64,000 nt of DNA, taken from positions 14,821-78,820 of the forward strand of contig JAJZPH010000002.1 in assembly GCA_021811265.1 (NCBI GenBank). The letters run 5' to 3'. This DNA is from a bacterium (GTDB taxonomy: Bacteria > Chlamydiota > Chlamydiia > Chlamydiales > SM23-39). This document shows positions 61,438 to 64,000 of this stretch, piece by piece. Below the pieces are notes generated by a model. The model saw nothing but the letters and a program-made list of their open reading frames with translations, had not been told where the DNA came from and ran no database searches. Both the position numbers and the translations under genes were made by a program. Numbering within the stretch: position 1 is the first letter of the stretch; each line of letters starts with the position of its first letter.

Positions 61438-62109
61438 ATGGGCCACAAACGTGACTGGAAGCAGTATAACAAACAGCTGGTGAATCGTGGCAAGATCAAT
61501 TTGTGGATCAATCCAGTGGCGCTAGAGCAATGGAAGCCTGCTCAAATCAAGAAAAATGGTCGTCCTTTTCGTTATGGTGACGAGTTGATCAAGACCATGA
61601 GTTTTCTCCGTTTCAAGTTCAAGCTTAGTCTACGAGAGACAGAAGGCTTTTTTCGGTCGTTCATTGAAGCGATTAGATCCGTTGTTTGCACCCCATGTTA
61701 TACTCAGATTTGCCGCAGAATGAAAACTCTTCAACTTCCGACTGAGTTGCTTGGGAAAAAAAATATCACCGACATTGCTCTCGACACCACTGGTTTAAAG
61801 GTGTACGGGGAGGGAGAATGGAGAGCGAAAAAGTATGGGGGAAAGAAGCGGTGGAAGAAATTACATTTAGCTCTAGATCCCAAGAGTGGGCGATTGATCA
61901 TAGCCGAGGTTACGGATGAATATGTTCATGACACAACGTACTTGGAAGATGTGTTGAAAGCAGCGGGGAAACGACGAGGAAAAGTACTGATCGACGGGAT
62001 AGCTGATAGTGGGAAATGCTACCGATTAGCTCGGAAGTATAATAAGACCTTATACACGCCGCCTAAGCAAGGAGCGGTCTTAAGGAAAGAAGATGGATAC
62101 GATGCCTAA
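61438..62109 (+). pseudogene. IS5-family (IS903-group) transposase, 3'-truncated
   Basis: MGHKRDWKQYNKQLVNRGKINLWI...GRPFRYGDELI...ALDTTGLKVYGEGEWRAKKYG...WKKLHLALD...LIDGIADSG is colinear with IS903 transposase as I recall it. It stops about 85 aa short, so the catalytic Glu region is missing. Confidence 0.7.
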
Positions 62110-62432
62110 GTCTGTTTTAAATCGTTTATTTTATCTTGAGTCATTTTTTTCAAAGCATGTAATGAATTTTCCGCTATGATATTTTCTTTATCTGTAAATT
62201 TTTCTAAACCTTGATCTAAAGCTAAGGAATAAGCAACTTCAATATCTAGCCATATAGTTCTAAAATCTTTTTTCCACTGCTTGTCGATGGTTGTAAGCTG
62301 ATTCAGACAACCCTCAAGATCATAAATCAAATCACTAATGTATAAAGCTTTATCAAAATATCTGGTGATTTTCAAATCTATCAGTTCTAAGGTACTGATA
62401 TCTTTTTGAATACTGGTTTCTTGAGTTGTCAT
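62106..62432 (-). CDS. putative immunity protein of the RHS toxin
   Basis: 108-aa acidic helical ORF. Its ATG overlaps the toxin stop (CAATGA). No recognisable family, which is typical of polymorphic-toxin immunity genes. Confidence 0.5.
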   Translation of the reverse strand: MTTQETSIQKDISTLELIDLKITRYFDKALYISDLIYDLEGCLNQLTTIDKQWKKDFRTIWLDIEVAYSLALDQGLEKFTDKENIIAENSLHALKKMTQDKINDLKQT

Positions 62433-64000
62433 TGGTTAATCTCTCCATAAAAAGTTGTTATTACTCTACCTTCTGTATTTACAATAACGGTCACGTCATT
62501 AACGCTGTCGTAATAAGCCATGGTGCCTGGATTTTTTCCTACAGAATAAGAGCCTCTCTGCATTACTTCATTTATCACCGAAGGTGTAAGTCCCCTGTTT
62601 TGCATTTGGTCTAGCGCGTGACCTGAATAAGGACGACCTTGGATATTTGTTGGTTTATTTCTCAGGGGTTGATAAGAGGCGTTTTTTAATTCAAATCCCT
62701 TACAGCCGAGGAACCCGTTTCTGCTCTTTAACGGTTTTGTGCTTAGCGCAGCGACTTTTGTGATTTGCACTGGCATTTTAGCTAATTTAGTAAACGCTAC
62801 TACCCCTTTTACAGCCCCATACCCCCCAGCAACTAAGGAAGCTATTTCCAGGCCCATGGTGGTTTTTGAACGAAAAGATTGATAAACAGCATCTGATTCA
62901 TCGATGGAGAACAAGTTAAGGACATGGCTTTTTACGCAAGATGATTGTTGCATCTGAGACAGTTCTACTGTTTCAATGATTTGCATTCTTTCTTGAAGAC
63001 TCATCTCTTGCTCGCTAGAACCTATGTAGACAGAAGCTGTTTGCAAATCATGGAGAGATCCTATCACAAAGTCCACAACGCCATGGCTAATCCCTCCTAA
63101 TGCACTTTTGATGTTGCCTCCTTTTTTGGTACAATCTCTTGAAGCAGATTCTTCAGAAGACTCATCTCTTCCGCATATGCAGACACAATTTATAGGTGCA
63201 TTGAACCACCCCGGATGACTGTGTAATGTACAACCACAATTTTCGTCCAATTTGGAGTACAATCCAAAGGAGTCGATATATTTCATGGGATTGTTATGCG
63301 CAAATGTATAAAGGTTAGGCCCATCGATAGTTCCTATTGGGTCGGGACTGATCCACCTGCCGATTTCTGAATCGTAGTAACGGTAGCCGAAATAGATAAG
63401 TCCCACTTCTTCGTCTACCCTTTTACCTCGATATCTCCATGGATTGCCGATTGAAGATTGGGAAAGGATTTTTCCACTTTCATTTGTGATTTCCTCTTCT
63501 CCGTAAACGGAGTAACAGTAACTTTCGACAACTTTGTGTTTTATAGGATCAAGCAGACAAACAATGTTTTCCTGTAGGTCATAGATGGGAACATAGATTT
63601 CATTTTTCACTTCGATTGCAATAGCAGAAGATTCGGGATTGTTGGGATCACTGGGAATCTTTAGCTCGATGATCATTCCTTTTTCATTCACACATCCAAT
63701 TTCAGTGTCGTCTATGTAGAAAAAGCGAAGGATTTTCGATTTCTTGCCTTTAGCATCAATGTGCTTGCTTAGGCGCTTTCCGGTAAGATTGTAGGTAAAT
63801 ATCACTCTATTTTGATCGGCGTCTTGAATGGAGATAACCTGATTGAGAGGATTCATCCGATAAGTCCAGGTATTTCCCTGGACTACCTTTGTGGCAATAG
63901 ATCCATTTGGATGGAAAGTGTAGATATTGCCTTCGGCTTCCATCAGCTCATTCAAGATATTTACTTTATAAGTAGATCGATCTTTTTTCAGGCGGTTTCC
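62429..64000 (-). CDS. RHS/YD-repeat polymorphic toxin, C-terminal part (N-terminus outside window)
   Basis: The frame is open to the window edge. YD-type repeats are present (YTFHPNGS, TYRMNPLNQ, FTYNLTGK). The RHS core end reads GNPWRYRGKRVDEEVGLIYFGYRYYDSEIGRWISPDPIGTIDGPNLYTFAHNNPMKYIDSFGL. A 276-aa variable C-terminal domain follows. Confidence 0.85.
   Translation of the reverse strand, partial: GNRLKKDRSTYKVNILNELMEAEGNIYTFHPNGSIATKVVQGNTWTYRMNPLNQVISIQDADQNRVIFTYNLTGKRLSKHIDAKGKKSKILRFFYIDDTEIGCVNEKGMIIELKIPSDPNNPESSAIAIEVKNEIYVPIYDLQENIVCLLDPIKHKVVESYCYSVYGEEEITNESGKILSQSSIGNPWRYRGKRVDEEVGLIYFGYRYYDSEIGRWISPDPIGTIDGPNLYTFAHNNPMKYIDSFGLYSKLDENCGCTLHSHPGWFNAPINCVCICGRDESSEESASRDCTKKGGNIKSALGGISHGVVDFVIGSLHDLQTASVYIGSSEQEMSLQERMQIIETVELSQMQQSSCVKSHVLNLFSIDESDAVYQSFRSKTTMGLEIASLVAGGYGAVKGVVAFTKLAKMPVQITKVAALSTKPLKSRNGFLGCKGFELKNASYQPLRNKPTNIQGRPYSGHALDQMQNRGLTPSVINEVMQRGSYSVGKNPGTMAYYDSVNDVTVIVNTEGRVITTFYGEINQ

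Follow-up and report, generated by a model that had tools for sequence, protein, structure and literature searches.

The right-hand end of the stretch analysed here, a window of 64,000 nucleotides from an uncultured chlamydia (contig JAJZPH010000002.1 of assembly GCA_021811265.1), carries on its minus strand the last part of an rhs gene and, directly behind it, a small gene encoding 108 aa. We consider it likely that we see here the 3'-terminal part of an intact, Sec-exported RHS/YD polymorphic toxin gene together with its cognate immunity gene. That the two form a toxin–immunity module is well supported, and we infer that the module is used against other bacteria, most plausibly chlamydiae that are not kin. 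The features on which this reading draws are given below in window coordinates.

63260–64000, minus strand: C-terminal part of the RHS/YD shell (RHS_repeat, YD_repeat_2x and TEN_YD-shell matches); the gene goes on past the window
63260–63514, minus strand: RHS repeat-associated core (TIGR03696), ending in SPDPIG...IDSFGL, with DSFGL at 63260–63274
63119–63259, minus strand: Cys/His-rich segment (NCGCTLHSHPGWFNAPINCVCICG...) directly after DSFGL, conserved in related loci
62732–63118, minus strand: pre-toxin region, helical and not polymorphic (alignment A3, locus and cluster counts)
62432–62731, minus strand: polymorphic toxin tip, a divergent DUF4258/Ntox49 domain of predicted BECR fold and predicted RNase, with its folded core at ~62441–62662 and the stop codon at 62429–62431 (PF14076, AlphaFold, Foldseek, conservation)
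62106–62432, minus strand: putative cognate immunity gene, 108 aa (position, conservation, fold, co-variation with the tip)

The rhs gene and its core

Within the window the rhs open reading frame (ORF) spans 62429–64000 on the minus strand, is still open at the window edge and represents the last 523 aa of an 1829-aa RHS protein. Its translation holds YRYYDSEIGRWISPDPIG...NLYTFAHNNPMKYIDSFGL, NCGCTLHSHPGWFNAPINCVCICG and GRPYSGHALDQMQNRGLTPSVINEVMQRG...GTMAYYDSVNDVTVIVNTEGRVITTF, as quoted in a preliminary description of the window, whose sequence-level statements (the ORF, its translation and motifs, and an acidic, coupled ORF of 108 aa) all checked out. The whole gene was taken from a second contig (L001; GCA_027452425.1) that is 100% identical to the window over 2.1 kb and on which the 1829-aa ORF (4515–10004, ~5.5 kb) runs without interruption, so that the upstream part, which the preliminary description had allowed might be disrupted, proved intact. 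An exact look-up with the 108-aa protein placed the same locus in four independent assemblies. The full-length protein matches RHS_repeat (E = 1.2e-43) and, weakly and near its N-terminus, DUF6531; the window fragment matches TIGR03696 Rhs_assc_core from NCBIfam (E = 6.3e-25, fragment residues 163–247), YD_repeat_2x (16.6 bits, against a cutoff of 15.8) and TEN_YD-shell. The protein is laid out as a signal peptide, a conserved mature N-terminal domain, a YD shell of roughly 1500 aa, the core, the Cys-rich segment, the pre-toxin region and the tip.

The core terminus aligns without gaps to those of the TcC subunits TccC3, TccC2 and YenC2, and keeps both aspartates, 23 residues apart, which we take to be the catalytic pair of the autoprotease known from structural work on Tc and Rhs proteins. 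Where the window protein reads SPDPIG and IDSFGL, TccC3 reads SSDPAG and LDPDGL. The preliminary description had pointed out that DSFGL replaces the usual DPxGL, and the alignment bears this out: DSFGL falls on DPDGL in TccC3 and on DENGL in TccC2, where the crystallised TcC constructs (TcB–TcC) stop at the aligned leucine. Because TccC2 reads DENGL, the proline of DPxGL is dispensable and DSFGL has a precedent. Cleavage would be expected after DSFGL, freeing a fragment of ~276 aa of which the Cys-rich segment would form the N-terminus.

Variable tips, co-varying small genes and a predicted RNase fold

The 276 aa that follow the core had been described as a single domain. A query with these residues retrieved 62 homologous proteins, from whose sequences the stretch can be read as three parts, namely the Cys-rich segment, a conserved pre-toxin region of ~130 aa and a variable tip of ~100 aa. 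Compared with its nearest relative (L005), the window protein is ~88% identical up to residue ~1700, through core, Cys-rich segment and pre-toxin region and without a frameshift, and over the last ~110 aa identity falls to 32%, 16% and 0%. Because the collapse occurs only there, the polymorphic module comprises only the last ~100–110 aa, and the single-domain description had to be given up. The boundary lies after the motif KLA[KR]xPxQ, about 170 aa past the core motif.

We searched GTDB species-representative genomes with a profile of the pre-toxin alignment (A3) and obtained 21 loci, labelled mostly Chlamydiae, Chlamydiia or Rhabdochlamydia, most of which encode RHS ORFs of about 1830 aa. 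Behind one and the same pre-toxin region these loci carry at least six tip classes (three DUF4258 subtypes and classes B to F), each accompanied by its own class of small downstream ORF, which usually overlaps the rhs stop codon or lies a few bases away. The identification of an RHS/YD polymorphic toxin in the preliminary description agrees with the TIGR03696 and YD/RHS repeat matches, the abrupt C-terminal variation and the co-varying downstream ORF.

In the window, the start codon of the 108-aa ORF overlaps the rhs TGA (ATGA), and its product is acidic (pI 4.79; 19 D+E against 14 K+R). The protein has 57 homologues at 55–86% identity, is modelled as a four-helix bundle (pLDDT 93.3), and is related by hhalign to the ORFs that follow two other DUF4258 subtypes (probability 95.7%, E = 9e-9). 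Its family (37 members) gave nothing significant against Pfam, and no DNA-binding domain match. Because it co-varies with tip type across loci, the ORF behaves as a cognate immunity gene, the role in which it had been presumed, and its product would neutralise the tip.

The remnants left at several loci are classical footprints of tip displacement by recombination. In one locus (L006), behind the class-C pair that belongs to it, stands a window-type tip reduced to its last 23 aa and then a complete immunity gene of the window type; an orphan immunity gene is present in L019 and a frameshifted one in L017; L021 (1–2954) packs three pre-toxin cassettes into 3 kb; and in L022 (6695–7144) an immunity ORF continues in frame into the Cys-rich/pre-toxin start of another cassette. 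Such arrangements suggest that the conserved pre-toxin region acts as a recombination handle.

A selfish addiction module, in which tip and small ORF would stabilise the locus or a mobile element in the way of a toxin–antitoxin pair and serve as no weapon, would fit the remnants of insertion sequences (IS) flanking the cassette and the additional use of DUF4258 as the toxin of type II toxin–antitoxin systems (PMC11980606). We hold it extremely improbable. The tip forms the C-terminal end of a signal-peptide protein of 1829 aa and is no free cytoplasmic toxin, the toxin gene comes first and the immunity gene second, and the 108-aa partner is a plain helical bundle without a DNA-binding domain match; this is the architecture that separates polymorphic toxins from toxin–antitoxin systems (PMC3482391). 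Very improbable, too, is a decaying relic, left inactive in a genome that is being reduced while IS elements expand in it. Two truncated transposases do lie directly downstream, and fragmentary or recombinant versions occur in metagenomes (P0006 and P0011, for example). Against this stand the unbroken 5.5-kb ORF, the frameshift-free similarity to L005 over 1700 aa, the retention of the catalytic aspartates and of the invariant residues of the tip, an immunity gene that is full length against its 57 homologues, and the identity of the sequence in the four assemblies. A functional polymorphic toxin with its immunity gene remains the reading that we prefer.

As to its activity, the tip is, judging from profile and structural comparisons, a divergent DUF4258/Ntox49 domain of the BECR (colicin-D/RelE-like) fold, and is predicted to cleave RNA. 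The last 100 aa are basic (pI 9.42). PF14076 (DUF4258) is matched at E ≤ 0.01 by 21 of 25 tip homologues (best 3.2e-5), two of the homologues weakly match Colicin_E5, and a 63%-identical homologue from Ca. Rhabdochlamydia carries the NCBI name 'DUF4258 domain-containing protein'. An alignment of DUF4258-type tips (A4) has Y211, H214 and G223 invariant and D217, M219, Q220, R222 and P226 conserved at 90% or more; H214 and R222 fit the 'H, [KR]' signature that Zhang et al. 2012 give for Ntox49. AlphaFold2 modelled tip residues ~200–273 at pLDDT ~95 in the order beta-beta-alpha-alpha-beta-beta-beta-beta. In a Foldseek search of the PDB, the colicin D tRNase domain came out on top (1tfo, 5znm, 1tfk and 1v74; probability 0.97–0.99, target TM-score ~0.41), followed by RelE and HigB (together at ranks 6–14), a CdiA-CT and ParE. 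There was no match on the tip to BrnT (PF04365) at E ≤ 1 and none to RelE Pfam families. The preliminary description had recognised in the end of the tip a DUF4258/BrnT-like toxin of RelE fold: profile and fold searches did turn up toxin similarity, and DUF4258, at a sub-threshold PF14076 match, and the BECR fold stand, whereas 'BrnT-like' fits less well than 'colicin-D-like', colicin D being ranked first by Foldseek.

The C-terminal domain had also been called novel-looking, a view that did not hold for the warhead. A 2026 preprint (bioRxiv 10.64898/2026.08.28.747851) places DUF4258 in the BECR branch of colicin-like toxins and reports its overlap with the Ntox49 family of Zhang et al. 2012, and the Ca. 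Rhabdochlamydia protein was already named accordingly. The same tip is found outside chlamydiae, after PT-HINT (P0054) and in an RHS protein of Thiodiazotropha (P0058). The activity of DUF4258 is given as 'Unknown' in one source (PMC11980606) and as 'tRNase (?)' in another, and the toxin–immunity pair would be a sensible choice for its characterisation. The parts that had gone unannotated are the pre-toxin region, the family of the immunity protein and a number of alternative tips.

The other tips were seen in L005–L023, where at least five further classes sit on the same RHS/pre-toxin scaffold, for example '...SNKIWTSTKKRTSVQNAYRHWKDHG...', '...KNSHGDLLIESKDGLRQFRMDLNHPKPH...' and '...LSRPYMKSPLTINEIMAAGKPIPDPGG...'. 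Classes B–F have no Pfam match, Pfam scans of alternative tips (P0015, P0016, P0017, P0020, P0024, P0034, P0047 and P0048) returned no families, and the further tip classes are candidate uncharacterised toxin domains, each with a candidate immunity protein. The ORFs that follow class-D tips (L008–L012, ~6700–6985) encode ~90-aa proteins with a zinc-ribbon-like CxxC...CxxC pattern, and in L007 and L017 (6681–7154) another DUF4258 subtype is followed by 157-aa ORFs with an extra C-terminal CPKC...CPKC module, which the 108-aa protein of the window does not have. In L006 (7020–9065), immunity genes of four different classes stand in a row. Several of the loci (L006, L012, L013, L016–L019, L021 and L024) are labelled Verrucomicrobiae, Verrucomicrobia, Acidobacteria, Bacteriovoracaceae or Chlamydia trachomatis; such non-chlamydial or odd labels on metagenome-assembled genomes with a chlamydia-type rhs locus probably mean that the assemblies are mis-binned or mis-named.

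Pre-toxin region, export and target

Between core and tip, the Cys-rich segment is 58–72% identical across 15 related loci, is modelled by AlphaFold at low confidence and matched no family in Pfam and NCBIfam scans. The segment that follows the cleavage site is always rich in Cys and His, but its sequence takes at least three forms that are unrelated to one another, NCGCTxHxHPGW...CVCICG, EYEPHCFCERHRNCKRGG and CVCGHCVRNEVFCHCRG...CACRGILC (window 63119–63259; P0026, P0028–P0030, P0033), which suggests a metal-binding or disulfide-forming role.

The pre-toxin region has the pattern GHGVVDFVxGSxHDLQTAA ... SIDESDAVYQSFRSKTTxGLEIGSLVAGGYGAVKGV, with a mean column identity of 75% in the trimmed alignment A3, and AlphaFold modelled it as helices at low confidence. 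It includes a glycine-zipper-like hydrophobic stretch (GLEIASLVAGGYGAVKGVVAF), and its hydrophobicity peaks at the glycine-rich IASLVAGGYGAVKGVVAFT, with a Kyte-Doolittle maximum of 1.41 over 19 aa. When 1.84 billion representative proteins were searched exhaustively, the region turned up in 104 clusters at 50% identity; among the longer matches that we inspected it almost always followed an RHS core and carried more than 12 different tips, and matches with a complete N-terminus mostly began with a signal-peptide-like leader. Nothing significant came from a comparison of 14 members with Pfam, and searches of PDB sequences with the C-terminal and pre-toxin profiles returned only the RHS core or noise; a PPR-repeat match in the profile search was rejected as an artefact of weak repeats being summed. 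One metagenomic ORF (P0006, 405 aa) is a recombinant in which the RHS signal peptide and N-terminal domain lead straight into the pre-toxin region, with a tip of the window type behind it and the entire YD shell deleted. A bolder proposal, which we think unlikely, is that the Cys-rich segment and the glycine-zipper pre-toxin region form a new, self-contained translocation module with which an RHS toxin exported by Sec and the type II system (T2SS) could pass the envelope of a neighbouring chlamydia, or the inclusion or host membrane, independently of a type VI secretion (T6SS) or Tc injection machine. If it were true, the module would point to contact-dependent kin discrimination among chlamydiae in shared host cells, with a mostly unannotated reservoir of tips.

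Export through Sec is indicated by the N-terminus, MKQLFFYFVVSIFCYAHA followed by GED, which resembles a Sec signal peptide and has a leader hydropathy above 2.0 (Kyte-Doolittle). All 15 full-length relatives (15/15) likewise start with a divergent hydrophobic leader with an AxA-type end, after which comes a strongly conserved mature N-terminus. A signal peptide combined with RHS is the commonest layout of polymorphic toxins (Zhang et al. 2012, PMC3482391). Upstream of rhs in L001 are genes for NDK, a GT9 glycosyltransferase, an outer-membrane protein and an ABC ATPase. Neither the rhs protein nor the neighbouring genes include VgrG, PAAR, TcA or TcB, and an SpvB or beta-propeller region was not found either; the other full-length members of the family are likewise without VgrG, PAAR and Tc partners. 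The rightward extension suggested in the preliminary description therefore recovered the full rhs gene but no linked VgrG/PAAR or other delivery genes.

An RHS protein of this kind could instead be a cytotoxin directed at the host, its cocoon bringing the RNase tip into a eukaryotic cell (amoeba, arthropod or other) in a Tc-like manner while the immunity protein only protects the producer before export. Eukaryotic RNAs would be substrates of a BECR RNase as well, the sequences most similar to the core are TcC subunits of the insecticidal Tc toxins, and the rhs gene has no linked system for delivery between bacteria, all of which speaks for such a target. So does the intracellular life of chlamydiae, for Zhang et al. 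2012 (PMC3482391) argue that the toxins of such bacteria are in many cases aimed at the host. We nevertheless regard a host-directed toxin as rather unlikely: the Tc partners and the SpvB or beta-propeller region are not found, in relatives the rhs genes are followed by orphan immunity genes and by arrays of several immunity genes, which make sense only against toxins of other bacteria, the diversification of tip and immunity in step is the mark of inter-bacterial conflict, and immunity genes are usually missing from host-directed toxins (PMC3482391).

Use against other bacteria had been called unexpected for organisms confined to a host vacuole. The MreB encoded in the window shares 85–93% identity with proteins from metagenome-assembled genomes named Chlamydiota, Chlamydiales or Ca. 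Anoxychlamydiales. For the source chlamydia, an uncultured organism known from a metagenome-assembled genome, this confinement is an assumption, and the surprise was overstated: chlamydiae were listed in 2012 with Ntox49, Tox-Barnase, Ntox7, Ntox9, Ntox12, Ntox50 and others, many of them RHS-borne, and Simkania with immunity-linked URI toxins and toxin–immunity pairs (PMC3482391). The same survey concludes that immunity genes are generally few in intracellular bacteria (PMC3482391). In the later chlamydial papers that we found, RHS proteins appear only in passing, and our literature search found no study dedicated to a chlamydial or Rhabdochlamydia RHS toxin.

As a working model of an anti-bacterial toxin, the protein would be exported through Sec and might cross the outer membrane by a type II system. 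The shell would enclose the C-terminal region, and autoproteolysis after DSFGL would release the ~276-aa fragment. Once the cell touches a neighbouring chlamydia, the pre-toxin region, which includes a glycine-zipper-like helix, may help the basic tip through the target envelope; the tip would then cut tRNA or other RNA by means of its conserved His and Arg/Asp, and sibling cells would be protected by the acidic immunity protein binding it. New tip/immunity cassettes would be gained by recombination in the conserved pre-toxin region, leaving orphan remnants behind.

Several points weigh against an anti-bacterial RNase toxin of this kind. The tip itself matches PF14076 at E = 0.0019 over profile positions 1–33 of 71, and its 18.9 bits fall short of the gathering score, which is 25; the Foldseek E-values of the colicin D matches are weak (0.06–0.1), because the model takes in about 200 low-confidence residues; and the immunity model retrieved only generic four-helix bundles from the PDB, with ImmD, the colicin D immunity protein, outside the top 50, for which reason an ImmD-like protein was rejected. 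When the flanking ORFs of the 21 loci were clustered all-against-all, only rhs and immunity-type ORFs were common to them, so that no delivery or chaperone partner is conserved beside rhs, although a Sec-exported RHS protein would have to leave one diderm cell and enter another. A search of the rest of the 64-kb window for a second rhs gene or an orphan cassette found none, only the IS remnants after the immunity gene. That the tip is a toxic RNase and is neutralised by the small protein, and that the RHS protein is secreted and cleaves itself, are predictions from sequence and models, and the working model presupposes that the source organism meets non-kin chlamydiae.

The cassette ends, on its downstream side, at the remains of two transposases:

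61306–62109, plus strand: truncated IS5-family transposase (NF033579, E = 8.6e-49, profile positions 1–220 of 289; PF13737, PF01609), which converges on the immunity gene, breaks off exactly at its stop codon and forms the downstream cassette boundary
60975–61313, minus strand: C-terminal tail of a different DDE transposase (PF13612, positions 118–154 of 155)

Terminal inverted repeats of an IS were looked for around 60900–62500, and nothing convincing emerged. Of the neighbouring genes in the window (NDK, Dtd, MreB, SNF2 and others), none recurs close to rhs at the other loci. Further away in the window is an unusually long type II secretin GspD of 1481 aa (24772–29217, minus strand), a possible exit route for the RHS protein although nothing links the two. 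Other genes of the window are those for an FHA-containing SctD of the type III system (39069–40964, minus strand), a Ser/Thr protein kinase (31643–33217, minus strand) and KdpA/KdpB (17683–21416, minus strand), along with three large ORFs that have no match in Pfam or NCBIfam: 1641–3878 (minus strand, 745 aa), 44343–45941 (minus strand, 532 aa) and 50777–52459 (plus strand, 560 aa).

Relation to known systems

The layout found here is standard for Sec-dependent RHS toxins, and the 2012 catalogue already contained the warhead family and recorded it for chlamydiae, so the general picture is unchanged. What the co-varying pairs and orphan immunity genes document is a true bacterium-versus-bacterium toxin system in environmental chlamydiae, in contrast to most intracellular bacteria, which according to the 2012 survey are without such immunity genes.

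Among relatives of the shell, the TcC subunits (TccC3, TccC2 and YenC2) provide the best match to the core terminus, gap-free and with both aspartates and the leucine of the cleavage site aligned, but the window protein has no TcB or TcA partner that we could find. To our knowledge, Tc toxins target insects and carry no immunity gene. The T6SS Rhs effectors (PDB 7q97, 8qjc and Tse5 8cp6) have in common with it the YD shell, the aspartyl autoprotease core (E 1e-10 to 1e-19), an encapsulated C-terminal toxin and an immunity gene; the window protein differs in having a Sec signal peptide and no PAAR or VgrG, either as a domain or as a neighbour.

Relatives of the tip are spread over several kinds of toxin. 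RelE, HigB and BrnT belong to the same BECR fold superfamily, but they are type II toxins, whereas the window tip is no free cytoplasmic toxin and its partner no DNA-binding antitoxin. The colicin D tRNase with ImmD (1v74, 1tfo, 5znm) is the best structural match, and the HxxD of the tip (H214, D217) compares with the Hxx[ED] tabulated for colicin D (PMC3482391); sequence identity is only 11–15%, the tip protein has no colicin translocation or receptor domains, and its immunity protein is unlike ImmD. With the DUF4258/Ntox49 toxins, which include Neisseria MafB-type proteins, E. coli CdiA-CT class 8, phage MuF proteins and type II toxin–antitoxin toxins, the tip shares H-A-x-x-[RQ]-M-x-x-R-G, a length of ~75 aa and its use as a polymorphic-toxin tip, although its score stays below Pfam's gathering threshold and the match extends over no more than the N-terminal half of the profile.

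Closest in overall design are the Sec-dependent RHS toxins, of which WapA/WapI of Bacillus subtilis is a studied example. The chlamydial system departs from them in three respects: its host is a diderm without a known outer-membrane route, its pre-toxin region, with the Cys-rich segment and glycine-zipper helices, matches no described pre-toxin domain, and the breakpoint of variation lies ~170 aa past the core motif and not at it. Like the members of this 'T2SS class' (PMC3482391), it starts with a signal peptide and continues with RHS repeats, a pre-toxin region and a tip that is a predicted nuclease; a gene for the putative immunity protein lies downstream, and orphan cassettes occur at related loci.

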